A DNA stretch of 63,734 nt, counting the filler, from Kipferlia bialata (lineage: Eukaryota), in assembly GCA_003568945.1 (NCBI GenBank). It is 5 parts of 5 records of this genome, joined end to end, with 100 filler letters (N's around TTAATTAATTAA, not from the genome) between each part and the next. Parts side by side here need not be neighbours in the genome. Positions count along the whole stretch, not along the records: positions 1 to 14,391 come from BDIP01000823.1; 4 more parts are not named here. The stretch is one strand, 5' to 3'. A program made the translations under genes and the position numbers. How positions within the stretch are numbered: position 1 is the first letter of the stretch; every line of letters begins with the position of its first letter. Positions 296 to 42,424 of the stretch are shown piece by piece. The notes under the pieces were generated by a model. It was not told the DNA's origin. It saw nothing but the letters and a program-made list of their open reading frames with translations, and did no database searches.

Positions 296-1761
296 CGTGA
301 GCACACTCCTCTGGTATCTGGCAATGTCATCCACAGTGTCCTTCCACCTAGGGTGAGACATTATCCATGCGTATATGAGTGGAAATGTACATGAAATATT
401 ACCTTTTGCCACTGATTTGAAGAGAAGATACAGATGTTGCATCAATTGCATATACATATGAGTAGTAGAGCTATTATCAGTATCCAATAAATGTATACAT
501 ACAATATTGATAACGTATTTTCTAATATAACATAGGTGAATGTATGCATTACCTTGGTAGCAGAGAGGGTGTCTCTGCATCTCCGTCGGCACCGGTGTAG
601 CGACGCACAACGTGGCCTGACGTTAGACCATCAATAGTAACACATGTGTACTAAAGAGTGGTTGCACTATGTACAAGGTACATATGTGTGTATGTGTGTA
701 CTCATACCAGTAAGTGGCAGCTCTGGTATCTCCCCCTCCACGGGCTGTACGGTGGCCAGCTCAATATAGGCACCCAGACAGCTACCCTGGAGACTAGGTG
801 TGAAGACTGGGTCGACGGGCACGTCAGACTCGACGAGAACGTCGTGCACAGCCGGCTCGACGGCCAGGGGCTCTGTGTGGGAGACGTCAGTCTCGACGTC
901 GACAGTTGTCGCGGTGTGGCTACCCTCCTCCTCCTCCTCCTCTCTCTCTCCCTCTCTCTCTCCCTCTATGGTGGATGTGGGTGCGTGGGATAGGAGAGAG
1001 GGGAGGACGGGCAGGAGGACCTTGCGAGCGTCGCCATACCTAGAGTTAAGGGTGTAGTAGAGAATGAGGGAGAGAGCTATAGTATACATTTAGTATGCTA
1101 CATATACACAAACACATACCTCTCCATCAGGAGTAGCAGATATGCCAGCCACAGACTGACAACGGGGGACAGGGTGTTGGGGGGGGCACAGGCCATGACA
1201 CGTAGGAGGGAACTAGAGTGAGTATATATATATCATAAATACATATACTAAGAGAGAGAGAGAGAGAGGGTGTTGGGGGGGGCACAGGCCATGACCCTTA
1301 AGAGAGCGCTAGAGTTAGACGTATGTATACATGTGTATATATATATGTGTATATATATATAGAGAGAGAGAGAGAGCGAGAGAGAGAGAAGGTGTTAGGA
1401 GGGGCACAGGCCATGACACGGAGGAGAGCGCTTAGAGTAAGAAGAGAGAGAGAGAGAGAGAGAGAGAGGGTGTGCGGAAAATGGCAAGGTGAGAAGAATT
1501 GAAATCTTTCCACATACCGGTAGTGACTGTCGAGCCTCTCATTGGGGATGCTCCTCTTGTTGCCCAGCTGGTACACCCTGGGTATTAGGATTCATATTCA
1601 TATTATATATATACATTCCATTGAATGAAGCTATAAACATACATGTAATGGTTACCCCCTTGTTACCGAGCGGGTACACCCGGAGGTTGGGGCCCGACAT
1701 GTGTATACATTTACTGTATAATACAATGAAACACACACTCTCTGTCAGCTGAAGACCAGCT

Positions 1762-1796
<35 letters not shown>

Positions 1797-3040
1797 CCCA
1801 TTTACAAGAGTATATACTTAATATATAATGTATATAATGTATGTACCTCTCTGTCAGCAGTGGTCTGAAGTCCAGGCTGAAGAGGCCCAATCTGTAGACT
1901 ACTCTCTCCCTCTATCTTCACTCTCTTGTTATAGTATTCATCCGTGCATTCATCATATATACAAATGGCCTATATAGGGCATACCTCTCTGTGAGGAGTG
2001 GCCTGAAGTCCAGGCTGAAGAGGCCCTTCTGCTCAGGGCCCTGGGGGGTTAGAGGTGTATATATATATAGAGAGAGAGAGAGAGAGACAGTAATTATACA
2101 TATATATGAGATACTATGGAAACTGAATGAGTAATGAAGAATGAAGAGACCCTTCTGCTCAGGGCCCTGGGGGGTCAGCAGGGGACAGATTCACCATTGA
2201 AATACCTATTATTCTCTAAATATAACATATATATTCTATATAGTATATTAATGTCTGGGGTCAGCACGGGACAGATACACTATATAATATAGACATTTAA
2301 TAGTAATTAATATGACTATTATATATAGTAATTACAATAGTATATTATTATGTTACATACTGACAGTCATCAGACAGCAGACGAATTGTATTATTCTAGT
2401 ACACACCTGCAGTGGTTACAGACAAGCAAGGTATACATGCTGTTACACTGACTGGGAATAATTATGAATCCATATTATTATTTATCCAAACTGTATATAT
2501 ACATAGAGACTGTATACCTGCAGGGGGTTACATAGCACTGGTCCCTTGTAGCTGGACAGACCTCCCAGGAGTCTGGTGCTGCCATACATCCTGAGGAATT
2601 AGGACAAATGAATATTATATATATATAGACATACACCCACACACACATATATTCATATGCTTATATATATAGACGGCTGGACAGACCACCCAGGAGTCTG
2701 GTGCTGCCATACATTCTGGTATTAGTATATATATACATATTATACACACATATATATATATATAATATACTACTTGGAGCTTGGTGCTGCCATACATCCT
2801 GAGGAATTAGGACACACTCACATATACACACTTGGTGAGGATAGATATGTAAGTACATTGGCAAAATTCACAATTGTCTGTATACTATATACTACTTGGA
2901 GCCTGGTGCTGCCATACATCCTGGGGGGTGAGTATAGTGTGCTGTATATATACACACTATATATGTGTATAACAGGTGATCATGAATATGAGTACGTACT
3001 TCTGCTTGGCCGACTCCTGTTGTCTGACGTGTGTCCTTAT

Positions 3041-3081
<41 letters not shown>

Positions 3082-4625
3082 CATATTATGTATTATACTC
3101 ACTTCTGCTTCTGTGACTCCTGTCTCACGTGTGTCCATATCAGTGGCCACACTATACATATATACAATGTATACTATACATATATATATACCACTATATA
3201 CTACTATACATACCTCTGCTTGGCCGACTCCTGTCTTACGTGTGTCCATATCAGTGGCCACACCCTGTGGTGGTAGGACACAGTGAGAAGACGGGTCTAT
3301 GGGTTAGTATATGTATATATACATATATACGAATATATATATGTATACATGTGTATCAGTGGCCACACCCTGTGGTGGTAGGACACCTTAAGGAGGGACG
3401 TCTGAGAGTAAGATAAAGAGTATTATATATATGTGTGTGTATATATGTATACAGATGTATGAGTGGCCACATCCTGTGGTGGAAGGCAACGGTCAGGAAG
3501 GTTAGGAATACGTGTATATGTATACATATAGCATACCTCTGTTGGCATCAGACCCCTCCTCTGCAGTCCATCCACCACGGCTAGGTACAGGTCCTTCTCG
3601 TGGTACAGCCTGTGGGGTAAGGTACAACATACTATATACACTATGCACACGCATATATACATACACAACTGTATTGATTATATACCCATATGTATATATA
3701 TATACTGGTACATATCCTTCTCGTGGTACAGACTGAGAGTAAGGTCATTTACCTGCCCACCCTATCCATGAACACTGTCCAATCTCTCTCTCCCCTTCCC
3801 CTCTCTCCCCCTCTCTCTCTATATATATATACACACTATATTACCTATCAGCCACCCTGTCCATGAACACTGTCCTCTGGCCTGTGATGCTAGGGGGGGA
3901 GGAATAGTCATCCTGAATGTAAGAAATCTATGTGTATAGCTGACAGTCTCTACATTTGAGAGACAAGAGGTAAATAACAATATCAGAGATAGTGAGTGCT
4001 AGGGGGAGTGGGGTAGTCATCCTGGGGGGTGAGAGGTGAAGAAAGTTACAATGAATATAACTATACAACAGTCCATGATTGCTGCGTATCAATACACATA
4101 CACTATACCTTCTTATGTATGCCGTCAACCAATTGATGCAGTGCTACATACTCTATGAACATAGACATCTATCTACATATATATATATATGTATGTCTAC
4201 TATAATATATACACATGTAATGTATGTATATAGGTACCTTCTTGTGAATCCCATCGAACAGCTGGTGCAGTGCTGCTCTATGAACACAATATACATACAC
4301 ACATATATATAGCTATATAGATATATATCCATATATGTATATATAAATATATATAGTAATACACACCTTCTTGTGGATGCCATCGAACAGTTGGTGCAGG
4401 GCCGCATACACACATGCATAAACATAAATACCAATATATATTAGTATCTATATACATATATATACATATGGTATTAATACAAATATACACTATACCTTCT
4501 TGTGGATGCCATCAAACAGCTGGTGCAGTGCGGCATGCTCTATGAACATGGATATCTCAGCCACACTGCCGTATCTGACTAGACCTAGGACATCACTACG
4601 GCTCATGTTTCTAGAGTAAGGGTCT

Positions 4626-4657
<32 letters not shown>

Positions 4658-6882
4658 CTCACAAGGCCAAGTACATCACTCCTGGACATGTTTCTGGGTA
4701 TGAGGGGGCAGAGAGAGAGAGAGAGAGACAGTAACTGGAATGCCTGACAATGGGTTGTAGTGAGTGCTTTATAAATTGACAAGTTATGTTGTACCTGACC
4801 CACTCTCCGATGTCAATCTCTGGTGTCTCTTCCTCCTCCTCCTCTTCCTGTACAGTCTCATCCACAGTGACCTGAGGTGTTAGAATATCTAAAATATACA
4901 TACATATATACGTTGTAGGCGCTCTCTTCATGGACAGTGACGTCCGCAGTCACCTGGCGTTATATACATACAAATATGTTCGACACAAATATGGTATATT
5001 TATATATATACTATACATATGTACATACCACTGTGTGTCTGACCAGTGGTCTTGATGTCACATATATAGAATATAGTATGTATACCCACAGTATCTCTCT
5101 ATATATATATCTCTCTCTCCATATACTAACACAGTATGCTCTCACCACGGTGTGTCTGACCAGGGGCCTTGATGTGACACGCATGGTCTGGAGGGGGGCA
5201 TCCATGCCTGATATATTAGTATGGTATAATATATATATACTTCTATATATATAGTGCAGATACAATGATTGTCTCCAGGTATATTTGGATATATATATAT
5301 ATATATATACACGCATGGTCTGGAGGGGGGGGTCCATGCCTAAGGGTCAGGGTATGTATAGAGTATGGACTAGACTAGCACATCAATATATACCAACCCT
5401 ATATGTATTATACTACTCTACACATATACCGTAGTATTTATACCTGGTAGGATAAACCCTCCTGCCAGTATGCATGTCTGGCCAAATATAAAACTACTCT
5501 ATACCAATATATATACTAATATATACAAATATATATATATACTATATACTATTGTTATGTTACCTGGCAGTATGAACCCTCCTGCCAGTATGCACGTCTG
5601 GCCATCTATACCACAACTCCATATCAATATATATACTAATATATACAAATCAATATATATATTATATATACTATTGTAATTATACCTGGTAAGATAAACC
5701 CCCCTGCCAGTATGCATGTCTGGCCATCGGTGGCAAGACTCTACTATAATATAGATACTTACAAACACATACACATACATATATATACATATATACAGAC
5801 TAACCGGGTAGGATGAACCCCCCTGCCAGTATGCATGTCTGGCCATCGGTGGCAAGGGCAGGGGGGATGCGGAACCTGAGGGTTACATAAGACATTGTAT
5901 AGTATATATATAAATATAACAAGGTATACATGTATATACACAAACATATATCCATATATGTATTGGTGACAAGGGCAGGGGGGATGCGGAACCTGGGGGA
6001 TATATGTATCATAACATCTATGTAGATATATACAATATACAGTTACACACATATGTGCATGTTACGTATATGCACTATACCTTCCCGTTTGTGGCCAGTA
6101 GAATGGGTAGCTGTACTCCACACTGCCACTGAAGGAGAGGGTCTCGGCAGCTGAGGCCGACCCTGCTCCTAGATATTAATATAGTTTGATTATACTATAT
6201 ACATATATATATATATACACTGCCAGAGAAGGAGAGGGTCTCGGCAGCTGATGCTGATCCGGCGCCTAGTAATTAGTATACTTTGATTATGCTATACATG
6301 TACATACATATACATATATATATATGTATATATACACTGCCAGAGAAGGAGAGGGTCTCGGCAGCTGAGGCAGAGCCAGCACCATATTGTGAGTTACATA
6401 TATACAGATAAGAAGAGAGAGGGATAAAGTCTCTCCCTACCGCAAAACCATATTGTGAGTTATGAGTATACTCATGGAGAGGAGAGAGTAGGATAGAGTC
6501 TCAGCAAACGCACATCCTCAAGATCCTACATATACACATAAGCATCCTCACAATGTGTACCTAGTGGCACCGAGCCAGCTGCTATCGTATCGTATCGTAT
6601 CGTATCGCATACCACATACATATATATACGATACTATAGGACAATATTCTACACATACCTAGTGGCACCGACCCAGCTGGCAGCTGCACCAGCATACCAT
6701 AGAAACGTGTTATATACTATGCACTACCTGTAGAATTACTATATATATATAACTGTATAGTACATATAGTACTACACCCATATCATACCTAGTGGCACTG
6801 ACCCCGCTGGCAGCTGCACCAGCAATCTCCAACCACTTCTGACAGGGGTGGCAGACAGGGACGTGACTGTGGGTTAGAGAGA

Positions 6883-6923
<41 letters not shown>

Positions 6924-8012
6924 GTAGTCTCCAGCCACTTCGGACAGGGGTGGCAGGATCATATATATATATATATATATGAGTACTCACCGTTGACATG
7001 TAGCTCGTACAGCTGCCCCGCCAGTGCACTCTGCACTGTGCCTGTCCGGCCCCTGTCCTTCTCCCTGACCTCCTGGGTGATGTACATCAGCTGCACAGGG
7101 GCACTTGATGCCTTATATCAGTAAATAGGTCTGGTTACAGTACATATACACTATTGGGTGATGTACATCAGTTGGACAGGAGCAGTGGAGGCCTAACGTG
7201 AGGTGGGTATATGGTAGATTAGTATATAAAGTATATAAAGATATGCTCATCATGGGTGATGTACATCAACTGCACAGGGGCTGAGGCAGGCTAAATGTCA
7301 GTATACATAGGAACAGTTATATATGTATTGTTATACGTATATGTGAGACTGGGTGATGTACATCAGTTGGACGGGGGCGGAGGCAGGCTGAGCAGTTGTA
7401 TCAGAAATAATGGCCTGTTGCCATGGACTAGTACACACTGTACATATGGCGTAAATGATATACACACTTACACCCACCTTAGCCTGCCCTGCATGCACAT
7501 GGATACACATCTCTATACATATACACTAATACCCACATAGGTCATCCAAATATTTGTCAGTATCTATATATATTTACCTTAGCCTGCCCTGCATGCACAT
7601 GGACGTACTTGCCAGACTCAGACCGGTCCTGGACATGAGAAGAGAGAGAATATATGTATCATACATACACACATACATAGCCTCTGTCATACCTCCTCTG
7701 TCTCCACCTCATGGACTGATCTGACCAGCAGCATATACTATAGCTTCTATATCGACTATACATACATATTTATATATACACACACACACACACACACATA
7801 TATATATGCTATATCTATCCACTCCTACCTCCTCTGTCTCCACCTCGTGGACTGATCTGACCAGCAGCATGGCAGAGCAGGAGGGGCTAGGAGTAAGGGG
7901 ATGAGTGTACATGTATATATGCATGGATAGAGAGAGAGAGAGAGGACTCATCTGACCAGCAGCATGGCAGAGCAGGAGGGGCTGATGGTAAGGGAGATAT
8001 CTATATACATAA

Positions 8013-8054
<42 letters not shown>

Positions 8055-8055
8055 C

Positions 8056-8091
<36 letters not shown>

Positions 8092-11000
8092 CATCTGACC
8101 AGAATCATAGCTAAGCAGGAGGGGCTGGGGGTAAGGTATATACATAATAGATAGAGACAGAAAGAGAGAGTAGAGATATAATGAGTGAGACAGATGTACA
8201 CACCTGCCAGCCTCGACCGAGAGGCATGGCACCCCTGCCTCCAGGTACCATACATACATATGATATACATATATTGATATGATTTACATATATAGATATG
8301 ATATATATACATATTGATGCCACTCTCTCACGTAGTATACATTAACGTACCTCCTAGACTCAATGCCTCCAGGTACCATACATAGATATGATATATATAT
8401 ATATATATATATTGATGCCATTCTCTCTTCTAGTATGCATTAAGGTACCTCCTAGACTCCACCGATAGGCATGGTACCCCTGCCTCCAGGTAGCGACGCA
8501 CAGAGACAGAGGTCTCGGGGGTCTAAGGGGTAAGAGAACGATAATTGTATTCAGATATTTCTGACCATTCACAATACACTACTATCCATACCTCTGGTAG
8601 TGCCGTGAGTGCCACTGCTGCCAGCAGAGATGTGCAGGAGTTCTTGGACCGGATGGCTGGGTGGTTAGAGACATAACAGAGTGGCAACTAGGACATCACA
8701 CAAAGGAACAAATTGACAGACGTATCCGTTCCTGACATAATCATAACTCTATCTCTAAATGTATAATCTATACATATATCTACATCACTGTATACTCACC
8801 CAGGTCCAAGAAGTGGGGTGTCACAAACACATTGTCCCTGCTTAAGGGTCCAGTGGCCATGTGCACAAGGGCATCCAGCCAGAAGGGGCACCAGGATGTA
8901 CTGTCAGAGTGGGTGCCTAGATATTAGTGGGTATGTACGTACGGACTTATATACATATATACACTATGGGTATATAACACAGGTATGTAGCCAGAAGGGG
9001 GACCAGGATGTACTGTCAGAGTGGGTGCCTAGTATAAGTATGTATATATACGTGGATAGATTATACATATACATATATATATACATATATATATACTATG
9101 TGTATATATATAGTATATGTATCCAGCCAGAAGGGGGACCAGGAGGTGGAGTCGGAGTGGGTGCCTGGTGTTAGTACTTTAGACTAAGACTATTTATCAG
9201 TACCCAAAAACACCCTACTGGACTAATACACGCCATCCTCACCTGTGACCCCGTACCATGTTGTCTCGGCATAGGTGCGTGTGGTGTCAAGGCCCTAGGG
9301 GGTTAGCGTTAGAACGAAGTGGTTCATACCCATACATGAATGTTACCCATTTGTTATGTCACTTATATATTTGATATAATATAAGTGTATGTGGCCCTGG
9401 GATGTCAGAAAGGAACCCTAAGTCTTATAGAAAGCATAGACATTTGGTGTGTTTGTTGCACATAGATGTATTGTATTGTCAAGGCCCTAGAGAGTTAGTG
9501 TTAGAGTTGATTCACACACCAATATACAATGTCACATGTATCATGGCATTGAGAAACTTCAATAACTATCTCAAGAAGTCTTTCTTAATGTACCTGGTAT
9601 CATACTGCCATTGCACTCTCCAGCCTAGACTCCTTGCCACACTCATTGATATATACATATATATGTATATTAACACATCCTAAGAGCCTTCTCTGAGTAT
9701 ACTATACCCACCTGGTATCTTACTGCCTGTGGCTTCTCAGCCATTGCACTCTCTCTCCTAGACTCCTTGGCCAGGGCACCCCCAAAGCCAAAGGACTGAG
9801 GGCCTGACCCTCCGTGCATGCGCCTACTATGAGGAAGAGTATACCATTATATACAGAGTTTAACCAGAGCCATGTACACACCTGGCATAAGAGGCAATAC
9901 TATGTACATACACAATGTATCTACCTGCTCTTCTTGGGCATGGCCAAGCCCACTCTCTCTCCATCAATAGATAAATACACTATCAGAGTATAATGAAATA
10001 TACTTTGGGAATACACATATTAATCTATACCTGCCCTTCTTTGCCTTGGGCATAGCCCCTCTCTCTCTCTCCATCCTTCTAGATCTAGGTGGAGCCATGG
10101 AGACCTCGTCCATAATGGGGGCTGGGGGTTAAATACAACAGAAAGGTCTAAATATGGTTACATTAGTATTTGAATATATGTGTTGTAGGGCATCCATACC
10201 TGCATTTCCAAGTGCCATGGCCATCATTGGTGGAGGGGGACCGCCTGACAGTTAGTATAGTATGAATACATAGATGTGAAAGTTAGTATAGTAAACATAT
10301 ATATACAAAAATATATGTGCATATACATATGTATATATACCTATCGGTACCAGTCAGAGAATGCAGTGGTAGCAATACACATACAGAAGTCAAAGAAAAT
10401 TGTGGGGAGCAAAGAATACTCAGAATTCAGGATTGGTAGGAGGACTTGAGGCAAATACAACACACTCCCTAGAATATGTATCACAATCATTAACATGCAC
10501 CACTAGCTATACAAATATATACATATATATACATATTATACATATACATATAATAGTATAACACCACTTAGTACATATAATACATACCCGCACCTGGTGG
10601 GGGACACTCACACATGCATATATAGGTATATACATATATATAATATATATACATATTATACATATACATATAATAGTACAACACCACTTAGTACATATAA
10701 TACATACCCGCACCTGGTGGGGGAGGGGGAGCCATGGACATACTGCTGCTGGGGGTGAGTCATGGAACAACCAGGAATAGAGTCTATAACAAAGGTAATA
10801 GATACATACCACAGCTACCTAGGTCATGGGACCACCAGGAATAGGGTATCTAACAGAATACAGGGAGAATTATGGGATCGGAACACCAGGAATAGAGTCT
10901 ATAACAATGGTAATAGAGTAAACATTGGGAACTAGTCAATATGCAACTGATACAGACCACAGATACCTAGGTGGGAGTGGGGGTGATGTCATTCCTGGCG

Positions 11001-14000
11001 AGAAATCCTCAGAGTCCTCGAAGGCGGCCTAGTATAAGGGAGTAAGGAATACATATACATTAAATGTATAATTATTCAGAACACATATATACATACATGT
11101 ATACAACATGCAGAGAAATCCTCAGAGTCCTCGAAGGGGGGCTGGGGTTAGTGAATGCAATACACTACATACTTATGAGCAAAAGGATAATTGTACAAAG
11201 TAAACGAAGGTGAATATGCAATAATATTGTATCATATCTTCAGAGTCCTCGAAGGGATGCTGGTATAGGGGAGTTAAGATTATACATACATACAATGAAT
11301 GTATAATTGTACAAATCACATATGCACATATGCCCACACTACTATTGAACACAACTATATACCTCGCTCTCCTCCTGGGGCTCCTCCCATACATTCAAAC
11401 ATATACATTCATGTCTAACCATCTATATGTGTGTACATCTATCCATACATATATGTATCTCCATACCTCGCCCTCCTCCTGGGGCTCCTCCTCTGCCTCC
11501 TCGGCATCAGTGACCTGGGGGTGAGAGAATAGTATTTAAACACACACACACATATATATATGATAATGAATTAATAGTTGAGTCTATCTTTTAATGATAT
11601 AACTAATCCATTAACTATATAATTCATTATGTCAATACCTCGTTGATCTGTAGGAATGACAGCACCATCACAATAACACCACTTACATACACAATATATA
11701 TATATATATATACATATAATGGATACAAGTATATATATATATACGGTATTACCTCGTTGATCTGTAGGAATGACAGCACTGCATCCTCCCTCATCGATGC
11801 CTCCCTGTCCCTGTTGGAACGGCCCTGGGTCTGAAGGTTAGTATACTAAANNNNNNNNNNNNNNNNNNNNNNNNNNNNNNNNNNNNNNNNNNNNNNNNNN
11901 NNNNNNNNNNNNNNNNNNNNNNNNNNTATATATATATAGTATGGGATGCCTCCCTGTCCCTGTTGGAACGGCCCTGGGTCTAGAGGTTAGATATGCATAC
12001 TTAATATACAAACATGGTATATATATGTATGTACAGTATATATATAGTACTCAGAGATGCCTCCCTGTCCCTGTTGGACCTGCCCTGGGTCTGGAGTTAG
12101 AGGTATAGACACAATATCATTATATAGATAGTGTATATAGTATCTGGGATGCCTCCCTGTCCCTGTTGGACCTGCCCTGGGTCTAAAGGTTAGAGAAAGA
12201 GAGGGGAAGATAATGAGTAAAGTCATATTGCATCTGTATGTGCCATATTTACCTCCAGTGACAATAGCTCCGACACATGTGACACCAGACTGGCACAGAC
12301 AGCGTCCATGCTCTGTCCCTCTCTGTCTCCCTCTGACAGAGAGAAGAGGGGCATGTACTGTCTGCACATGTCTGCAGAGAGCAGGGTCTCTAGCACACTG
12401 TGTGTAGTAATGAACCTAGAATATTAGGGGTGGAGAGAGAGAGAGAGAGAGATGTATGTCGGCACAGAGGATGGTCTCAAGGACAGAGTGTGTAGTAATG
12501 AACCTACGTGTAAGGAGTGTAGGGAGGGAGAGAGAGAGAGAAAGAGAGAGAGAGTGTAGGGCCTCTAGTATACTGTGGACGGTAAAAACTACACCACACT
12601 TGGTGTTGATAGCAGTATTGCCTATATATGTAAACATATTTGTATATACAAGCATTCTTATACATAACTGGGCTCTTCATCTGCTCCACTATTACTGTGA
12701 TGTCTGAGACATACATCACTCAGTATATACATATATAACAGTAGTGCCTATACATATATATATATATATATGTAATTATGTAGTATATATACCTTGCTGG
12801 GCTCTTCATCTGCTCCACTATCACAGTGATGTCTGAGACATACATCACACTATACAAATATATATACGAATATAGCAGTAGTGCTAATATGTATATGTAT
12901 TAATAGGTACTTATACCTAGCTGGGCTCTTCATCTGCTCCACTATCACAGTGATGTCTGAGCCATACATCACACTGTACATATACTAGTATACATACATA
13001 TACTAACTATATACATCTATAAGTGTATAGTATACATACCTAGCTGGGCTCTTCATCTGCTCCACTATTACTGTGATGTCTGAGAAATATATCACACTGT
13101 ATATATACTAGTAGTATACATACATATACAGACTATATACACCTTTACATATGCAGTATATATACCGAGCTGGGCTCTTCATCTGCTCCACTATCACTGT
13201 GATGTCTAAGACATACATCACACTGTATATATACTAGTAGTATACATACATATACTGACTGTATACACATATACATATGTAGTATGCATACCTAGCTGGG
13301 CTCTTCATCTGCTCCACTATCACTGTGATGTCTGAGTTGCAGTTGATGTACTCACGCAGGGCAGACTCTCTTTCAGCACCCTAGTGTTAGTGACAGTATG
13401 TGTATACATACATATATATATAGTAATTAATTATAAACTACTATTAATATATTGATTGATCAACTCGGCACCCTGGAGTGTCAGCCGTAGGGATCAATAG
13501 GGGAACAATACACACACACACATATATATAACTATATATATACACAGTTGATGTTATCACGCAGGGCAGACTCTCTCTCGCTACCCTGGAGTGTCAGATG
13601 TAGAATGTACACTGTATACCCTCTATACATGTATATGCAACATATACGTTTTATAGGGTTGTATGTATATATTATACTCATAACTACATGAATACCTCTG
13701 TTTCCAGCCCAATTGACGCCATGATGGCCCAGTGGTCCACAATGTCCAGCTGCATCTTGGACAGGACTGGAGTTAGTACTATTGAGATCATATATAGATA
13801 TATACATATATATTGTCAGAGTGCATTAACACATGTTTAGTCAGTGTATATATCATTCACATACGATGAGACGAAGTAACTCATCTCTTAACAATATGAA
13901 TGGACATATATATGGTCCACAAGGGAGAATATAGTTTATTGTATTCCACAATGTCCAGTTGCATCATAGACAGGACAGTTACGATTAGTAAATCATCACA

Positions 14001-14251
14001 AGTAAACATCCATATTCTTTTCATATCGATATGTTATATATATATGTTATATATAGCAGTACCTGTTGGCACCACATAGTCCCTGAAGAAGTCTCTGTCG
14101 AGACAGTACTAATGAATATACTAATACACATATACTAATATATACAACACATTATACCTGTAGGCACCACATATCCTGTGAAGAACTGTCTGTCCAGACA
14201 GTACATGGCAAAAGTGAACTCGTGAGAGACAAGGCGGGCATAGTGAGTGAT
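296..14251 (-). CDS. Partial multi-exon gene (both ends off-scaffold) for a very large conserved uncharacterised protein
   Basis: Manually spliced GT-AG exons read in frame: ITHYARLVSHEFTFAMYCLDRQFFTGYVVPT-VLSKMQLDIVDHW (14251-13697), RYQ-GLDTTRTYAETTWYG (9712-9244), PFWLDALVH..FVTPHFLDL-AIRSKNSCTSLLAAVALTALPE (8916-8592), LLVQLPAGSVPLG, YPFYWPQTG-RFRIPPA, LDFRPLL, LGNKRSIPNERLDSHY, LQGSCLGAYIEL, WKDTVDDIARY. From memory, the motif order matches a ~2000-aa hypothetical family seen in Planctomycetes and protists; unverified without a search. Confidence 0.8.
11851..11926. other. Intra-scaffold N gap
   Basis: Run of N without the linker motif, inside an array of exon-end copies. Similar gaps at 18655-18699, 38505-38542 and 48825-48866. 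Confidence 0.95.
12669..13336 (-). repeat. Six-unit tandem array (period about 125 bp) of an exon 3' end, most units with a GT donor
   Basis: CTGGGCTCTTCATCTGCTCCACTAT(C/T)AC(A/T)GTGATGTCT recurs near 12669, 12797, 12921, 13044, 13169 and 13296. It encodes DITVIVEQMKSP. Only the 13292-13381 unit is a complete exon. Confidence 0.95.
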
Positions 14252-14391: not shown

Positions 14392-14491
14392 NNNNNNNNN
14401 NNNNNNNNNNNNNNNNNNNNNNNNNNNNNNNNNNNTTAATTAATTAANNNNNNNNNNNNNNNNNNNNNNNNNNNNNNNNNNNNNNNNNNNN
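14392..14491. other. Artificial scaffold-joining linker
   Basis: 44 N + TTAATTAATTAA (stops in all six frames) + 44 N. Confidence 0.99.
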
Positions 14492-14505
14492 GGGGGGGGG
14501 GAGAG

Positions 14506-14549
<44 letters not shown>

Positions 14550-14552
14550 TAC

Positions 14553-17469: not shown

Positions 17470-17583
17470 CTGTTTGACCACAGGCCACAAAAAACAGTTC
17501 TTGTAGTGAGGGTGTAGTGCGATGCTTTACTTTGGGATGAGCTTACTAGTAGAGATCTAACATAACACACTCTATTGAAGAGT

Positions 17584-20263: not shown

Positions 20264-20296
<33 letters not shown>

Positions 20297-27879: not shown

Positions 27880-27912
<33 letters not shown>

Positions 27913-31357: not shown

Positions 31358-32038
31358 TGACTGAGACTGTGCCTGTGGAGGGTCAGCCCACCCTGACTCC
31401 AGGTACATATATATATATGCATGTTAATAGAGTTTAGTCTGTTCTGACCTCAGTCTCTGCCCTCACTCCATCCACAGATATATATATGCTATATGTATAT
31501 GCTCTATATATATGCTATATATATACATATATACATGTAATTAGAGTTTAGTCTGTTCTGACCTCAGTCTCTGCCCTCACCCCCCTCACTCCATCCACAG
31601 GGGCAGAGATCACACCTGTGCCCCTGCATGAGGAGAGTGTGAGGGATGGTCTAAAGCAAGATGAGGAGGGAGGAGAGACAGTAATTGAGGGGACTGAGAG
31701 CAAGGCAGAGTCTACCACTACTACTCCAGAGATAGAGGGGGAGGGGGAGGGAGCAAGTGATGCAGGACCTAAGGAGAAGAAGGGCAAGGAGGGAGAGAGA
31801 GAGACGAAGGGCAAGGGCAAGGGCAAGGCTAAGCCCAAGGCGAGGCCAGAGCCTGAGCCATACAATGGTAAGTCTTCCCCAATCTTTCTCTCTCTCTCTA
31901 TTCCAGGTATATACGTCTCTCGAAGTTAGTTCCTTTTGTTCTCTCTCTCTCTCTGTTTGTCCTCGCATAGATATCTTACTATCTCGTTCGCCTTCTCTCT
32001 ATACATATGCATCTGTCTGTGTCTACTCCCCTACTTAG

Positions 32039-32076
<38 letters not shown>

Positions 32077-32407
32077 ACGTACACATACCATGTTAAAGCA
32101 TTATATGTCTCAATGTATATGTACTAATGGCTTGCTATATGTATATGTATTTGTGGTAACTGGAGTACAAGAGTGTTGATACTTCATCTCTACCTCTGAC
32201 TCAAGGGGTATCTCTCTCTCTCTTTATCTCTCGCTCGCTCGCTCGCTCGCTCTCTCTCTCTATATATATTCACATACACTCACTCTTGCTGTCTGTCTCT
32301 CCCTTTATGAACCTTTCTCTCTCTACATATACATGTGTTCTCACTCTAGGTGTCTGTCTCTCCCTGTATGACAAGGGAGTCTCTCTCTCCCCCCCCCCCT
32401 CTCTCCC

Positions 32408-32440
<33 letters not shown>

Positions 32441-33367
32441 ATCTCCATTTATGTCTCTTACTTCCAGGTGTCTGTCTCTCCCTGTATGACAAGGGTGTGT
32501 CACTCCCTCTCCCTCCCTCTCCCTCCCTCTCTCTCTCTCTCTATATATATATATCTTACCCTAGGTGTGTGTCTCTCCCTGTATGACAAGGGTGTATCAC
32601 TGCGTAAGAAGAGAGAGGCTGAGGCTGCGGAGAAGAGAGCAAAGGCCCTAAAGGAGGAGCTAGAGGTAAATATGTATCGGGGGAGAGAGATAAAGCGAGA
32701 GCAAAGGTCCTGAAGGAGCTAGTGGCATCCTCCCTCCTTATTATTATATCATTATTATATAATTATTATATTACTATAGTATTACTATTATTGTCTTTCA
32801 CTATTCACTATTCACTATTCACTGACCACAGGCCATCACCAGGCACCCAGACATCTATATCTGCATCCATATTCCACCATGTTTAGGATATATATATATG
32901 AATGTGGTATATATATTGTATATATACTAGATCTAACCACAGGCCATCACCAGACGTCCTGACATCTCAGTCTCGTCTAGAACAGTGCCCCCAATGCCAA
33001 GGGAGGCAGGGGTGGAATTCAGTACGCGAAATAGTGTATATATATATACGCGAATTAGTGTATAATGCCATATATATGTACCCCCAATGCCAAGGGAGGC
33101 AGGAGTGGAATTCAGTACGCGAATTAGTGTATTTACACTTCTATTCATTTCATCTGATGTTATGTATAATAGCCAATTACACTTACCCTAGGTGACTACT
33201 GCTATGCCTGGCGGGAGGAGGCAGACCACAAGATGGAGGCAGCTAGAGTGGAGAGGTATGTATGTATATATATTTATATATATATATGGAGAGAGAGAGA
33301 GAGAGAGAGAGAGGCAGACCACAAGATGGAGGCAGCTAGGGTGGAATAGAGAGACAGTATATATATA

Positions 33368-33400
<33 letters not shown>

Positions 33401-34121
33401 GCAGACCACAAGATGGAGGTAGCTAGGGTGGAGAGGTATGCGTTGGATATGTGATACATGTTCACAACTCAATACGTGTAATAACACCCATATTCAATAG
33501 TGTATACCTCCCTCTTCAGTGTTACCTCTGGATCTGTCTCTCTCTCTCTCTCCCTACACACTCACTCTATACCTATGAGTCCATATCTCCCTCTGCACCC
33601 TTAACTCTCTCTCTCTCTCCCCCTCTACACCCTTATTGCCAGGGACAGAGAGGCCGAGGTCCAGGACATGAAGGCCATGAAGAAGGTATATATACAAATT
33701 CATTTGTTTCTTTCCGTAGTATATTCAGTCTCCTTGGATCCACCTCCCTTTTGGTATATATATCCATTTATATATTTATATGTATATATATATATGTGTG
33801 TGTGTGTATATATTATCCATTATGTATATATGTGTATTCTCTACATGACTGTATTGTGTACACCCTTCTCCTCTCTCATATCCCAGGGTGGTAAGTTTGT
33901 GAGTGGCCGCTCAGCACGCATCCTGAAGGTATGGTACTGTATGATGATAGTATATATGTGGAGTACGAGTTATACTATATGTCTATATTTATATGCCTAA
34001 CCATAGGAGATGAAGGCCGAGGGCCGCCAGAGGGCACCCTTATACAAGGCACCCAAGGAGAAGGGGGAGGAGGGACTGGGGACATCTAGGATAGGTGTGT
34101 ATATACATATATGTATATACT

Positions 34122-34179
<58 letters not shown>

Positions 34180-34258
34180 TACTAGTTACAAGGCACCCAA
34201 GGAGAAGGCAGGGGAGGGGATTGGTACTACTAGGATACATATATATATATATTTGTAA

Positions 34259-34290
<32 letters not shown>

Positions 34291-35222
34291 TGGAGACTGG
34301 TACAAGCCACCCACGCAGAGAGGGGGTCTTTCAACGGTATATATGGAGACACATATATATTATTGTATATATTCGTGTGTGTGCGTGTGTGTTTGGAATT
34401 ACAAGCATAAATTAGATAGTATTGTGTTCTTAGAATGTGCCCCTTACACCCAGGCCAAGAAGGTAGATTGTCTATATATATATATATATATACAGTACCA
34501 GAAGTGTATATATGTTTATTATTCCTATGTTAACACCCAGGCACTCCCAAGGTCAAGAAGACACCCAAGAAGGGAATCACTTAGTATATACACAGTTTCT
34601 GTATTATATATATAGATTATCTATATACAGATTCATATACTCATATTAGGCCCCCCCAAGGCCAAGAAGACACCCAAGAAGGCAGAGGCTGACAAGGGCA
34701 GGAAGAGTGGCCTAGAGGTGCATGACAGACTGTACAGACTGGGCATGGCAAAGTGAGTCACATTCACATATGGACAGCATATACAGTGCCGCCAAGGAGC
34801 ATCAGGTATGGATAAACATATATATTTCTATTTATTATTTTTTTATACATACATATTATTTTCCACATATTCACATATTCACACCAGGTAGACAGTAGCA
34901 TATACATGAATATATATGAATGTATATGAATGTAACTACCCCCTTATTGTCAGGACAGGCAGAGAGAGAGGGCTGCCCAGCTGGATGCCCAGTGCACATT
35001 CAGTCCCACCATCAACTCAAACAGTGCGGAACTGGCTCAGGTACTATGGTATATACATATATGTACATTTGTTTGTATATATACATTTGTTTACGTATAT
35101 TTAAAAATATAGACATATTTTTTATATACACATTGTATATATATGTACACATTCAGTCCCACCATCAACTCAAACAGTGCGGAGTTAGCACAGGTATTGA
35201 GTAGAGTATATATACACGTCGG

Positions 35223-35269
<47 letters not shown>

Positions 35270-35300
35270 TTCTCACCCCCAGCGCAGTGCTGCCCGTCGG

Positions 35301-35333
<33 letters not shown>

Positions 35334-35632
35334 TACCCCAAGCGCAGTGCTGCACGTCGGTCTCTGCTACAGACCGAGGGGGAGAGGCGGAGGCTGCTGA
35401 GAGAGGTAGGTGTTATATATTTTCAGTGTATAAATATTGTATTATAGTATAGTAGTATTACTATGTTACTGAGGGAGGTAGGTGTCGTATATATATATAG
35501 ACTTGGCAAATATTCATGTTTTGTGGCTTTGTGTTTACCAGAGATTCACATACATATATATATGTGTGTGTAATTGTATCTAACCTTTCAGCAGAGTCTG
35601 CAGGCCTCCCCCTCTGCTGACAGTACCTAGTG

Positions 35633-35674
<42 letters not shown>

Positions 35675-36852
35675 TATTCCCTTGCATATATATTATATAT
35701 ACCATATAGGCATCTAATTTTTCAGCAGAGCCTCCAGGCCTCCCCCTCCGCTGAGAGTGAGCCTCAGGACAATGGGTCAGAGACAGAGACACAGAGGGAG
35801 AGAGGGAGAGAGAGACGGTCAGAGACAGAGTCACACAGAGAGAGAGACTCTGTGAGAGAGGTACCCAACACCGTTAGCAAATATATACGTTTATAGTGTT
35901 ATGTCTATGTATAGCATATATATATATGTCCCTTACCACTAGGGCATGTCCTCCAAGGCCTCCTTCGACCAGTTCATGTATCCCAAATATGGACATATAT
36001 GTATATATGTGTAGTATTCCTCATATATTTGTATATACTCACCCCTCAGGGCATGAGTAGCAAGGCCTCCTTTGACCAGTTCATGTCAAGGAACAGAAGG
36101 CACATACAGAAGCAGGTATATATAGTATATATAGTATGCTGTATCGATAATTAATATTGTTATTATTCGTATATATGTCGTCTGTTTTACAGGAACAGAC
36201 CAATATCAGTATCATTAGTAGTGAAGTTCAATACACACTATTACAAGTAGTTTGCGAGTGAATGTACATATGTCTAAATTATAGGAATGGACCCGCAAGT
36301 TCAACCAGCACCAGAAGGAACAGGAGGAGGAGAGGACATGCACCTTTACCCCTATGCTGGTGGCCAGGTATATATGTACATGTAGTTAGTATATATATAT
36401 ATATATACATATATATGATATATTAGTATGTTAGTGGAACAGGAGGAGGAGAGGACATGCACATTCACACCGATGCTGGTGACTAAGTTAGACACTATGT
36501 ATAATTATAGTACGTATCAAATATAGTATTTTACCTCACACTAGGGACCCCTCCACCTCCCAGCCATCCAGTGCCAGGGGCAGGACAAGAGACAGGGAGA
36601 TGTCACCACGGACCACACCCAACACATCAAGGTATGTATATATATATATATATATATACTCTATTATGTCATATACGTGTCACCACGGACCACCCCCAAC
36701 ACCTCTGGGTCATCTAGGGGGACACCCAACACATCAAGGTATATAGTTATAGTTATGTGTATATACTTGTGAATACTAATATATACTGGCATATACTAGT
36801 ATATGCGTATGTACTTGTATCTCTCGCCCCTTACACCTCCAGGGTCACAGTC

Positions 36853-36883
<31 letters not shown>

Positions 36884-38130
36884 GTTACTCATTTAGATTT
36901 CTATTTACACGCATATCCAAGTATATGTATACAATATATCATTCCCTACTAATGTATAGGGGCACCCCCACCAGTGCCAGAGGTAGTGCTAGGAGTAGTA
37001 TATATGTATGTACTTATATGTATACGCATTATTATATATATATATATATATCATTCCCTACTTATATACAGGGGCACCCCCACCAGTGCCAGAGGTAGTG
37101 CTAGGAGGACCCCTGTCTCTAGCAGAGACCACCTAGCCTCATCGGGCAGGACAACAGGTGAGGATTTGAGTCACTCTATTTCCCAATCACATTTTCTACT
37201 CCCATATGTGCTTATATATATATATATATAATATTATATATGCTTATATTATTATTATAATATTATATATATATATATTATATTATATATATATACATGT
37301 AAGTATACATCTCTAATACCAGATCAGCTCCCCACCACCCAGCATGGAAGGCCTCTCTCTCTCTCTCTCTCTCTCTCCATATATATATGTATGAATATAT
37401 ATATATGTATGTATATATATCTGTGAACTCTCACCCCAGACCAGCTACCCACTACGCAGCACGGCAGTCCTAGAACCACTCAGTCAGAGAGGGAGAGAGA
37501 GAGGAGGAGAGAGAGGGAGAGAGAGAGGGGCTCTCCTCGCAGTATGGCACTGTCAGGTATATACTATAGTATATGTTATATAGTATATACTTCTACTATT
37601 TACTGAGTAGCCTCGCAGCGTGGCACAGACAGGTAAATACTATATAGTGTATTTAATGTAGTGTATTTAATACTATTTGCTAATCATGTACTGAATAGTT
37701 TACTCTCTTCTCCTGGACCCCTATATGAAAGTATGTGTTTGACCCCAGGGAGAGAGAGTGAGAAGAAGAAGAGGGCTGCTGCGCTGAAGGCTCAGGTATC
37801 CAGACAACTGTTATATACATGGTCAACTACTATATTGAATGATTCTACGCAAGCCCATGCTAGGGTCCCCCCGCCCCCTACCCCGCTCTCTCTCTTAGAT
37901 ATATTTATATACATATATAAATATGGTCCTGTGATATGCTGCACTGAAGGCCCAGGTATATATATATATATATCCAAGCGGCGGTCATTGTTATACACTA
38001 CATTGAATATGTATGTTCCCTTTTCCATTTACAAACGCCCTATAGCTAACCGTAGTGCTCTATATATCCTACTCACTCTCTCTCTCCCCCACTCTCTCTA
38101 ACACCAGCGTCTCTATTAGCAGGGCCTGGC

Positions 38131-38164
<34 letters not shown>

Positions 38165-38229
38165 GTGTGTATATATACATACAGTAGTGTCAGATACTCA
38201 TACCAGCGTCTCTATGAGCAGGGTCTTGC

Positions 38230-38271
<42 letters not shown>

Positions 38272-39950
38272 GTGTGTGTATATATACATACAGTAGTGTC
38301 AGATACTGATATCAGCGCCTCTATGAGCAGGGTCTTGCCTCTCTCTCTCTCTCTCTATATATATATGTGTGTAACTAACCGTAGCGCCTCTATGAGCAGG
38401 GCCTGGCCTCTCTGTCCAAGAGGGACTCTCTCTCTCTCTCTGTCTCTCAATATATATTCTTATATATATAACTAATACCAGCGTCTCTATGAGCAGGGCC
38501 TGGCNNNNNNNNNNNNNNNNNNNNNNNNNNNNNNNNNNNNNNTATGAGCAGGGCCTGGCCTCTCTGTCCAAGAGGGACTCTCTCTCTCTCTCTCTCTGTC
38601 TCTATATATATATGTGTGTATAACTAACCCTTAGCGCCTCTATGAGCAGGGCCTGGCCTCTCTGTCCAAGAGGGACGAACTATCTAGACGGAGGGAGATG
38701 GAGAGGTATGTATATATATTTCTTTATGTATGTATGTATAAATAGAGAGAGAGAGATAGAGAGACAGTAGACTAGCTCTCCAGACGGAGGGAGATGGAGA
38801 GGTATGGTTACACATGTATATATATATAGATGTATAGAGAGAGAGAGGGAGAGAGATATGAGCTGTCCAGACGGAGGGAGATGGAGAGGTATGTATACAC
38901 ATATGTATTTACATAGATATGTTCTTGTATGTTATTGAGAGCGAGAGATCAGTGGTGGACGCACTCTCTAGACGGAGGGAGATGGAGAGGTATGATGATG
39001 TGTTTGGGTTTAAGTATATGCGTATATATCAATACACAAGATATATGTATGTGTATATACATCTAGATTACTCTATATCATTCAAAGATTCTTCGATGTA
39101 TCTAACCCCCATCTATCTATATAAATAGTTGTTAAATAGTTGTTAAATAGTTATAAATAGTTGTCTGACTCTCAGGAGTGCACATGTATGTATTCACTCT
39201 CTATATTAATATGCTATTGTATGTATCTAACTCTTAGGGAGATGCAGCTGCAGGAGTGCACATTCACTATATATATATATATATATGTATATATATACAT
39301 ATTATAGTATGTATATATATATGTTCTATGTATGTATCTAACTCCCAGGGAGATGCAGCTGCAGGAGTGCACATTCACACCAGACACACAGCGGTCGAGG
39401 AGGAGGTATATATACACATATTATGTATACGCATCTATGTATATACTGGATATATATGTGTCCATATGTGTATACATTCACACCAGACACACGGCGGTCT
39501 CGGAGGAGTACTAATGTATATGTGGTGTATGTATATTGTATAATTGTATTTATTCATACATTTTTATATTCCCAGAAGGAGGTATGACGGAGAACTGTCA
39601 GTACCGATGTATCTTTGGATAGTCATACATATGTATATATATATTCCTTATTATTGTATAACCTCTTATCCTAGCCTGGCCTCCCTCCGCAGTCCAGTCT
39701 CTAGTGGCCATAGAGACCTATATACATTAGTATATGCTATATGCACTATATATACTATGATATATGGTCTTACCACAGTATGGCTTCTCTCCGCAGTCCA
39801 GTCTCTGGTGGCCACAGAGACAGAGAGAGAGAGAGAGACAGAGATATGGACTACAGTCAGTCCATGTCCCCCAGACCCATGTCACTGGCACAGCAGTTCA
39901 GAGACAGTAGGTATATATAATGTATATATATATAGTACATAGTATATATG

Positions 39951-39981
<31 letters not shown>

Positions 39982-40304
39982 TCCATGTCCCCCAGACCAA
40001 TGTCACTGGCACAGCAGTTCAGAGATAGTAGGTATATACACACTTTATGTATAGTATATTTGTATAGAGAGAGAGAGAGAGAAAGAGAAAGAGCTAATGT
40101 CCCCCCTGGCACAGCAGTTCAGAGATAGTAGGTTTGTAGAGATAGCGTAGTTCATATAGTGTATTATCTGCATATCTCACGACAGGTTCTCTCTCTCCCC
40201 CTCTCTCTACAACGTAGTATCTCTCTCTCTCTCTATACATCTCTGTCTCTTACTCCAGGTTCTCCCCCTCCATGCTGCAGACAGGCCCTGCCTACATAGT
40301 CAGG

Positions 40305-40347
<43 letters not shown>

Positions 40348-41426
40348 ACACACACTTGTACTGTTTGCTAATAGCCAGCCCCGGAGAGAGGGACAGGGAG
40401 AGAGAGAGAGACAGGGAGAGAGACGTGGAGAGAGAGAGAGAGAGACAGTGGCAGCTCCAGGCTGCTCTTGAGTACCCTTCCCCTCTCCAAGGTTTGAAAG
40501 ACCCTTATTCACCCTCTCTACACCCTTATACCCCCCCTCTATTAATACCCAGCCTCCCAGCTAGGCCCTCGGTCCCCGCTGTCATACTCCACTGGACCAG
40601 CAGGTATAGAGTAGTATCATTACCTACACTATTAGAATATTTAATAATTTCTATATACTATGCTATTGTGAATACTGTACCCTCTCATACTCCACTGGAC
40701 CAGGAGGTATAGAGATATATGAGTGTGTATATATAGTATTTCTGATACCCAGGCTCCGGAGTTGGCAGTCCCTATGGCAGCACCTATGGGAGGGAGAGAG
40801 AGGCAGAGAGGGAGAGGGAGAGGGAGAGGGAGACTGACCCGGACAGTATAGAGGGCCTGTGCTCACTGGTGTCCAGCCTCAGTGGCACATTGGTACCCAG
40901 CAGGTATGTATATATATACATGTATGTAATAGGACATATACTGGATATTCCCTCTGAGAATATTCTGAGAGTATTATTCAGATGCTTGTTCTTGTTTGCT
41001 GCCCCCTTATGCCTCAGGAGCAGAAGCATGCAGGGATCCCCCAGCTATGCCACAGACAGCCACATGGAGTACTCTCCTCACACCCTACGCTCTCCCCCCT
41101 CTAGCGCCGCCTTTGGGTTCTCGTACAGTAAGGGTGTAGAGGGAGAGAGAGAGAGAGTGTGTGTGGACAGGCCAGAGTCTGCTGAGAGGGTGAGACCAGT
41201 CCCCTCTCCCGCTGTAGTGCCTTTAGTTAAGGGTGTAGAGGGAGAGAGAGAGAGAGAGTCTGCTAATTCCCCCCTTGAAGGCATAGCCCTAGAGCCAGTG
41301 GCTGAGATTGAGGGTGTAGAGTGTGGAAAGGTAGACCCAGAGACAGAGAGAGAGAGAGAGAGGATGGAGACCCTTAAGGCCAATCTGGAGAGGGAGAGAG
41401 AGCTCGAGAGAGAGCTGGGCCTCTAG
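31357..41426 (+). CDS. Large low-complexity protein with CTFxP and RLY repeats (putative cytoskeletal/microtubule-associated)
   Basis: Starts MTETVPVEGQPTLTP. Exons encode SLYDKGVSLRKKRE (32575), VHDRLYRLG (34718), QCTFSPTIN (34990), TCTFTPML (36335), RLYEQG (38635) and QECTFTPDT (39360). Last exon 41018-41426 ends ERELGL*. Confidence 0.75.
38107..38990 (+). repeat. Array of exon-start copies (acceptor + RLYEQGLA) and exon-end copies (LSRRREMER + GT) around exon 38635-38705
   Basis: AG-CG(C/T)CTCTATGAGCAGGG near 38107, 38206, 38315, 38385, 38481 and 38543. AGACGGAGGGAGATGGAGAG-GT ends near 38705, 38801, 38888 and 38989. Confidence 0.92.
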
Positions 41427-41981
41427 AGACTTGGAGATACTATACTATGAGGCCTTCGTCTTAGTGCCTCTATAGTATAGGGCAGAGGGAGGGAGAGAGA
41501 GAGAGAGAGAGTCAGAGGGAGTGGATGCGGCCACTATGTCCTACTAGTCCCAGTGCCTATATAGTGTATGACTTAAGAATATGGGTCTAGTGGTTGCAGG
41601 GTAGTTTGGAGAACGTTCAGTCGGACAGGGATCTTTTTAGGGGGTCCCCATATATGTATTCATAGATTTTCAGTGTGAGTGCTGCAGGTTACATGCCAAT
41701 ATTCATGTGTCTAACGTAACGTTAGTAACGTTGAATGTGAGCAAGATTCGGATTTTCCCTGAAACCTCACCGGATTCTCGGAGAGACCATTCTCGCTGAA
41801 TACTTGCCCTTCAAGCAGTCCGCCACGCTCACCTGACACCTAATAGCCTGTCACCCACCTGCTTTTGGTGTCTGTGTTGCTAATTACTGCATCTGGGCTG
41901 GCTTTTACGTCAGATACCGTGCTGACCACTCCAATCCGATCTCTACCTGCTCCTACTGCCTCTCCTGGCTGTTTGTAAAGT

Positions 41982-42338
41982 ATGGGAGACGCTGTGTCTA
42001 ACGAGGCTGGTGTGGGAATGCATCCCCACGGGGATATGGGCACGCACGTGCCCCAGGAGCTGTCTGGACTTGACGTCACACCTGTGACTGCCTCTCTGGC
42101 CTCCTCTGAGAGAGAGAGAGAGAGAGAGAGCTATCTGGGTGACATGGGTGAGGAGGGTGTGTGTGGGGTGGATGGGTTAGATGCCCTGGAGGGACTGGGG
42201 GGACTGGAGGGTGACTCCCTTGCCCTGAGCCCCAGTCAGTCCCCAACCCCTCTCTCCCCATCCAGTCTCGCATATGAGGAGGAGGGGTATCTGGAGAGAC
42301 CAGCTGAGGCAGACGCTGAGGTATGTATGTATGTTGTA

Positions 42339-42424
<86 letters not shown>

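Follow-up and report, generated by a model that had tools for sequence, protein, structure and literature searches.

How is an intron spliced correctly when it contains several near-identical copies of the exon edges that border it, and where do such copies come from? These questions are raised by a minus-strand intron of the unicellular fornicate Kipferlia bialata, located in a stretch of 63,734 nucleotides of assembly GCA_003568945.1, filler included (henceforth termed the window). From sequence alone, the original prediction described donor copies followed by acceptor copies between the real donor and the real acceptor, and held that any inner pair would form a well-formed intron. It concluded that the outermost pair has to win over near-identical decoys, either by strict exon definition or by inside-out nested splicing.

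Several known arrangements resemble parts of this locus. In nested or twin introns, a signal of the outer intron is split by an inner one, or else all inner sites form complete pairs. Recursive splicing uses an acceptor that is directly followed by a regenerated donor. Silent conversion cassettes, such as the pseudogenes of antigenic variation, are partial gene copies with codon structure that are unexpressed in place. Mirage minisatellites have been described from amphioxus in Adh3, the globins BflGb6 and BflGb9, troponin C and PGBD5 (PMC3087553, PMC3902484, accessible text). They occur at both boundaries, with splicing reported as undisturbed in RT-PCR and an origin that the accessible text of PMC3087553 calls unclear. 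In human F7, a 37-bp VNTR in intron 7 creates 5' pseudo-sites downstream of the real donor, and the first donor alone is reported as used in the accessible text of PMC1557585. The spliceosome of K. bialata is reduced: 87 out of 174 proteins were identified, and no candidate snRNAs (PMC6679479). Here, we analyze the copies in five gene models of the window, their splice sites and their codons.

Gene models in the window

The window consists of five pieces of about 14.4, 14.4, 14.4, 14.4 and 5.8 kb, joined by N spacers. These spacers (14392-14491, 28881-28980, 43363-43462 and 57832-57931) are 100 nt long each, with N runs around a short linker that carries stops in all frames; features stop at all four, the pieces being separate contigs of falling length. 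Genes in the window are intron-dense; their exons are short, their introns rich in TA, and the branch motif lies near the AG. Five gene models (g1, g3, g3b, g4 and g5) were built by hand with a self-trained gene finder as an aid; the curated set leaves out the minus-strand genes at 43.6-52 kb. Since the modelled genes were chosen from repeat-rich parts, the copy counts below are not a genome estimate. When the outer sites alone are spliced, g1, g4 and g5 are open frames; the g3 model has three phase gaps, which are probably missed small exons. The gene that hosts the focal intron is:

296..14251, minus strand: gene model g1, 34 exons and 959 residues, cut by both contig ends

The g1 protein shares 203 of 220 residues with K. 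bialata record P0001 (160 of 166 over the first six exons) and is also related to the C-terminal part of P0002 (2,537 residues; 289 identities). Together with these two records it belongs to a small Kipferlia family. Queried with P0001, a collection of 1.84 billion representatives gave 2 matches and no relative beyond this family. Neither P0001 nor P0002 matched a Pfam family at cut-off, P0002 having one sub-threshold match.

Structure of the focal intron

The focal intron runs from the GT at 13291 to the AG at 12416 on the minus strand (876 nt). It and its surroundings contain the following features, in which bits refer to the splice model described further below:

13292..13380, minus strand: real exon upstream (89 nt), GAERES...KSPA; frame open in g1, peptide shared with P0001
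13290..13291, minus strand: real donor GT, 9.7 bits
13164..13210, minus strand: donor copy 1, the final 45 exon nt followed by the GT at 13165, 4.0 bits
13038..13084, minus strand: donor copy 2, GT at 13039, 10.6 bits
12915..12961, minus strand: donor copy 3, GT at 12916, 6.7 bits
12791..12837, minus strand: donor copy 4, GT at 12792, 9.3 bits
12662..12708, minus strand: donor copy 5, decayed, GT at 12663, 2.5 bits
12551..12590, minus strand: old acceptor-side copy, no AG in register
12456..12505, minus strand: acceptor copy, intact; its AG ends at 12504 and is followed by the first 48 nt of the exon; 11.0 bits
12416..12417, minus strand: real acceptor AG, 9.8 bits
12253..12415, minus strand: real downstream exon, 163 nt, FITTHS...LSLE; 93% identical to P0001, open frame
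13545..13587, minus strand: acceptor copy belonging to the upstream exon, located one intron earlier (anchored scan)

Tandem Repeats Finder delimits an array of 5.4 copies of a 126-nt unit at 12660-13336, each unit comprising the last 41-45 nt of the upstream exon, the GT and about 80 nt of intron. The intron parts of these units are 68-89% alike, and the four intact donor copies show five differences in the 41-nt exon part, all of them silent. Within 13380-12253 the longest exact repeat is 42 nt, and all six units are different. The exon part of the intact acceptor copy, 12503-12456, reads FITTHSVLETILCAD.

The coordinates predicted for the real donor, the four donor copies (13165, 13039, 12916 and 12792) and the real acceptor proved exact. 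All four copies are indeed intact, but a fifth, decayed one at 12663 had been overlooked. Two acceptor copies had been proposed, at about 12600 and 12505. The latter is intact, but the former is broken: it has no AG in register and its nearest AG scores -9 bits or worse, against 9.8 bits for the real acceptor, so that it is not a usable acceptor. The claim that inner pairs recreate the peptide junction KSPAR-FITT stands for all four intact donors joined to 12504, but as a local match, since the pairings fail in the wider frame. Among 12 pairings, outer-to-outer alone keeps the 959-residue frame of g1; each of the 11 others, taken as a single splicing event, runs into a stop at residue 104 or 114. 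The decayed donor 12663 joined to the acceptor copy gives KSPVM-FITT. P0001 has the KSPAR-FITT junction without repeats, and this equals the outer junction of the focal intron.

Copies of exon edges across the gene models

An anchored scan found 134 copies, 63 of donor and 71 of acceptor edges, in the 94 introns of the five models. At a stricter cut (score 14, 20 nt), 59 of the 94 introns carry at least one copy. By gene, copies are found as follows:

296..14251, minus strand: g1, 59 copies in 24 of 33 introns
31568..43237, plus strand: g3 and g3b, 36 copies in 18 of 25 introns
52770..57476, plus strand: g4, 9 copies in 7 of 18 introns; no difference from record P0003 over 728 residues
58159..63526, plus strand: g5, 17 copies in 10 of 18 introns; start presumably UBP-type zinc-finger-like

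As a chance control, 453 pairings of exons with foreign introns yielded no match. All 134 copies sit on the tandem side. Five matches to the wrong exon end were inspected and none was true, two being donor copies of short exons and three low-complexity sequence. Both kinds of copy occur in 22 of the 94 introns, and the donor copy precedes the acceptor copy in 62 of 62 pairs; the polarity that had been noted in other introns therefore recurs without an exception.

The median spacing of units is 105 nt, of which 37 nt are exon (about 70 nt intron). Cut ends adjoin a dinucleotide repeat in 49 of 121 cases, against 19% elsewhere, and truncation points are shared in 17 of 32 neighbouring copies. 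Unit lengths lean slightly towards multiples of three (31/70, p 0.04; 42/104, p 0.08). Across the five models they also drop off sharply below about 75 nt (5th percentile 75; median about 108), a limit that is roughly one exon edge plus a normal intron minus the far splice site. The splice signal is intact in 49 of 54 donor copies and 55 of 67 acceptor copies. GT or AG is retained in 104 of the 120 copies analysed, which hold 4 stops; about 11% of intact-site dinucleotides have been lost in copies.

Tandem units across the exon-intron boundary, duplication of either boundary and retention of many GT/AG signals are the marks of mirages, and the structure is of this known kind. When a tandem duplication spans one splice site, the copy that is continuous with the exon stays real, which produces nesting; the duplicates are pushed to the intron side, so that donor copies gather at the 5' end of the intron and acceptor copies at its 3' end. 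The nesting is thus likely a by-product of duplication and not of stepwise splicing.

The second piece (14492-28880) gave 9 copy matches in 71 predicted introns, all at 22.4-22.8 kb. Its introns are shorter and GC-richer (median 78 nt; 45% GC, against 36-39% in the copy-rich genes). The self-trained gene finder called many copies as exons; because copies mislead gene prediction in this way, annotations of such genomes may overstate intron numbers and contain inflated protein models.

Strength and choice of splice sites

Splice-site scores come from a model for which 63 predicted, not RNA-verified introns of the second piece served as training set. Donor copies average 8.4 bits and their real sites 8.8 (49 pairs, p=0.74), and acceptor copies average 13.3 bits, their real sites 12.3 (55 pairs, p=0.26). 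In 18 of 34 introns for donors and 24 of 38 for acceptors, the best copy is at least as strong as the real site. The focal intron follows suit, with donor 13039 (10.6 bits) above the real donor (9.7) and acceptor 12504 (11.0) above the real acceptor (9.8). The decoys are therefore genuine rivals of the real sites, as the original prediction had it; clearly weaker scores at the inner sites, which it had named as evidence to the contrary, were not obtained from the trained model.

Since copy sites score like real ones, the outer pair must be picked by position, which is likely to mean exon definition or scanning. Choice of the first donor and the last acceptor fits cross-exon recognition, because only real exons have both ends. 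The outer-only model of g4 agrees fully with record P0003 over 728 residues and 18 introns, and this record passes over all 10 copies there; exon 53679-53999 matches it at 100%. P0001 and P0003 are gene predictions, and the published K. bialata annotation is described as consisting of transcript-hinted AUGUSTUS models (PMC5874029, accessible text). The proposal of strict exon definition thus fits in its outer, positional choice, but it would also predict depletion of cryptic donors behind acceptor copies. No significant depletion of these donors was found (p 0.44 and 0.11), a null result that counts against the strict form. It also weighs against exon definition that short-intron protists are generally assigned intron definition, as stated in the accessible text of PMC2397502.

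Inside-out nested splicing, in which inner donor-acceptor pairs are removed first and thereby resolve the outer intron, draws support from inner pairs that are well formed, have normal scores and, in two-sided introns, lie 75-124 nt apart at the innermost donor and acceptor in 9 of 16 cases (plain introns have a median of 78 nt). The copy numbers speak against it. Among the 57 introns with intact copies, 5 have equal donor and acceptor numbers and 42 have one kind, and the focal intron holds five donor copies against one acceptor copy; with 42 of 57 introns one-sided, inside-out splicing cannot be a required route. No unit interrupts the outer GT, branch or AG, and the outer intron therefore has no need of an earlier excision; intact outer signals with 5 of 57 introns balanced are not what an obligatory nested (twin) intron displays. 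Nested splicing would also leave unexplained the codon-level constraint described below, which the original prediction had overlooked. As the route to mRNA it did not hold up, and we regard it as quite improbable; harmless occasional inner splicing would be compatible with the data.

Other uses of the copies were considered and rejected. For recursive splicing, exon starts in which AG is directly followed by GT are not enriched (5 of 43 copied exons, 9 of 51 others). For mutually exclusive or cassette exons, a usable donor follows 0 of 67 acceptor copies and a usable acceptor lies near 0 of 54 donor copies. For read-through translation of in-frame units, fillers are open in 11 of 31 cases, against 25 of 62 in other frames.

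Codon-level constraint in the copies

The codon test took 120 of the 134 copies; those dropped had a weak score, were under 20 nt or contained N. A copy that is dead from birth changes at all sites, so that dN/dS against the real exon should not fall under about 0.5. Over 1,387 codons, copies and real exons differ by a dS of 0.31 and a dN of 0.068, a ratio of 0.22 (P 1e-13 against the 0.5 floor) that stays within 0.19-0.25 across three transition ratios. Nearest copies alone (n=80) give 0.23 (P 2e-8), and comparison of copy against copy gives 0.24 (P 6e-20). Differences at codon positions 1, 2 and 3 number 104, 81 and 296, and wrong reading frames give dN/dS values of 2.0 and 2.7. Second codon positions show 55 differences, against 161 expected from half the fourfold rate, and base-specific rates do not rescue neutral decay. 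At 11 serine codons the copy and the real exon belong to different codon families, TCN versus AGY. Replacing changes are slightly more conservative than neutral (BLOSUM P 0.03-0.07), and the direction of silent changes, G/C versus A/T, is near even (75 versus 60). By gene, the ratio is significant for g1 (0.25), g3 (0.13, P 6e-9) and g5 (0.25) and not significant for g4 and g3b individually; the focal intron by itself gives a non-significant 0.33 (P 0.25). A frame test of indels counted 7 of 21 as multiples of three, from a list that contained duplicates and edge artefacts.

Changes private to one copy were extracted from 20 triplets. Those private to the nearer copy comprise 16 silent and 8 replacing ones (P 5e-5), and those private to the farther copy 31 and 15 (P 1e-8), whereas 73% replacing changes are expected under neutrality. 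A real exon running away from a frozen copy is ruled out by this silent bias of the copy-private changes, and since the bias affects both copies, a single lineage with dead copies cannot yield it. As an estimate, dS minus twice dN puts the silent divergence that predates the copy at about 0.17-0.2.

Individual exon edges illustrate the types of change. At 6120-6383 (minus strand), one exon start occurs in three versions, the real one and two copies, which differ at nearly every silent position in the first five codons and agree beyond. Copies at 4571-4693 (minus strand), 43025-43148 (plus strand) and 35943-36086 (plus strand) have 7, 6 and 3 changed codons with zero amino-acid changes, switches of serine and arginine codon family included.

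Outside the codons, the branch motif before the nearest acceptor copies (n=35) is the same as at the real site in 10 cases, different yet consensus in 23 and lost in 2; as background, 58 of 1,085 random intronic AGs are preceded by one. Among 68 nearest copies, 15 have an intron half with detectable homology. The divergence of intron halves exceeds what silent sites predict and shows no correlation with that of the exon part (rho 0.03).

Origin of the copies

The dN/dS of 0.22, together with branch motifs that changed and stayed consensus, implies that the copies were functioning exon edges while they diverged, most probably in other alleles. We therefore lean, with some reserve, towards tandem mirage-type edge copies that are likely skipped by the spliceosome and that probably once worked as exon edges in other, strongly diverged alleles. 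Units would be made when recombination misaligns or homologous repair aborts, with ends at (TA)n/(CT)n tracts. The other allele may have served as the template, or a local duplicate may later have been recombined onto another allele; the exon edge and half intron of one allele would in this manner be joined to those of another. Codons and splice signals of the copies would have diverged under selection to work and then decayed a little, and the difference between real edge and copy would be the sum of allelic divergence (about 0.2 per silent site) and about 0.05-0.07 of decay. An acceptor copy ahead of a donor copy would constitute a false exon and be removed by selection, and the mRNA would take the first donor and the last acceptor via cross-exon recognition or scanning. 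Young identical units may be absent through collapse by short-read assembly. According to the accessible text of PMC8516963, metamonads lack Ku-type end joining and fornicates lack Rad51A; fornicates keep Dmc1 paralogs and meiotic genes, and sex is unobserved in metamonads.

An allelic origin needs silent diversity near 0.2 and recombination between lineages, and against it stands that a diverged partner was found for neither g4 nor g3. The strong divergence of the intron halves, the non-significant ratios of g4, g3b and the focal intron taken singly, and the mixed agreement of g1 copies with P0001 weigh on the same side. The g4 search for a paralog or diverged partner matched the identical record P0003 alone, and the search for a relative of g3, a weak one, returned no match, not even its own protein. 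If the copies are the edges of other alleles, a single genome would record both this diversity and recombination, in a group where sex is unobserved, and the origin of mirages would gain a testable mechanism.

Other origins account for parts of the data. That the copies are still in coding use, an RNA- or DNA-level step swapping edges into the expressed gene from silent cassettes under selection, would cover with one step the low dN/dS, the consensus-keeping branch turnover and the old, barely alignable intron halves, and the slight lean of unit lengths to multiples of three agrees with it. Partner sites are, however, absent (0/67 and 0/54), so ordinary splicing cannot insert the copies. In-frame fillers show no excess of open frames (11/31 against 25/62), the losses of intact-site dinucleotides (about 11%) and the 4 stops speak against it, and conversion frequent enough for selection would erase the silent differences; we judge this origin unlikely. 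A genome-wide version, in which Kipferlia renews its splice sites by exon-anchored exchange, the resident edge giving way to a diverged one with its half intron, and displaced edges stay as selected, reusable cassettes to be swapped back, is if anything a shade more doubtful. Were it true, introns would be stacks of interchangeable exon ends in an organism whose reduced spliceosome relies on exon definition alone. Templates could instead have been paralogous genes or internal repeats of the same genome. g1 has a close relative in P0001. At the 13 rows that distinguish the two, the copy sides with P0001 in 4 and with the real exon in 6, and departs from both in 3, which makes paralog templates conceivable in g1; the g5 protein carries internal peptide repeats. 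This reading is likewise rather doubtful, since the signal is strongest in g3 (0.13), for which the weak search found no relative, and g4 has copies and no paralog match.

The remaining explanations fare worse. Ordinary slippage, with local duplicates dead from birth and decaying neutrally, would explain the tandem geometry, the microsatellite-bound ends, the shared truncation points (17/32) and the 68-89% likeness of intron parts in the focal intron; it is highly improbable in view of a dN/dS of 0.22 under the 0.5 floor, 0.24 between copies and private changes biased to silent sites. Whole exons that were duplicated, long mutually exclusive and later cut to one edge would yield a translated history and working splice sites, but they predict either edge on either side of the intron. 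With all 134 copies on the tandem side and 0 of 5 wrong-end matches true, we give this history a very slender chance. The slightest chance of all falls to an artefact in which a short-read assembler laid alleles in tandem. The assembly is a fragmented short-read one, N gaps lie inside two other arrays (11851 and 38505) and unit length is near read length; against this, the longest exact repeat is 42 nt, no two of the six units are identical, the junctions consist of unique sequence, and a diploid could not account for as many as six versions.

Relation to known systems

Like the Kipferlia copies, amphioxus mirages consist of tandem units of about 100-160 nt across a 5' or 3' exon-intron boundary, with AG/GT signals. 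The accessible descriptions present them as single loci with 81-100% unit identity and make no mention of a silent-site bias. In Kipferlia, by contrast, the copies occur in a unicellular fornicate, in 59 of 94 introns of five genes and at both ends in 22 of 94, with codon-level constraint and with intron halves that are mostly not alignable. Mirages are also expected to have units that resemble each other over their full length, evolve in concert and vary in number between haplotypes or cells; full-length likeness is seen in the focal array (intron parts 68-89%), but across the window detectable homology is confined to 15 of 68 intron halves. Human F7 shares functional donor copies downstream of the real donor; as described in the accessible text, its units are identical and short and involve donors at one locus, whereas the Kipferlia copies are diverged, acceptor copies are predicted to be skipped as well and the last acceptor to win. 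With nested and recursive introns the focal intron shares an intron-like unit inside an intron and an AG directly followed by GT at the 12504 copy; it differs in that outer signals are whole, copies are unbalanced and AG followed by GT is not enriched. Unlike silent cassettes, the copies lie within introns of unrelated genes and carry splice sites, and their exchange is hypothetical.

The literature surveyed, which included few subscription papers, contained no report of such repeats in Kipferlia and no silent-site or codon-level test of mirages. Judged from sequence, what appears to be new is how densely copies occur in this unicellular fornicate, that decoys match the real sites in strength, and that the copies have a coding past. 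The copies would provide natural competition between equally strong splice sites, in hundreds of pairs, within a short-intron protist whose spliceosome is reduced, and exon versus intron definition would be directly testable there.

Other features of the window

At 34753-34805 (plus strand), continuity of the frame requires an intron of 25 nt or, alternatively, an unusual donor that lies earlier and precedes an exon of 28 nt. The minus-strand gene at 14584-17104 encodes what we take to be a membrane protein with a C-terminal adenylate/guanylate cyclase-like motif, and the one at 43576-44453 (minus strand) is presumably FKBP-like.
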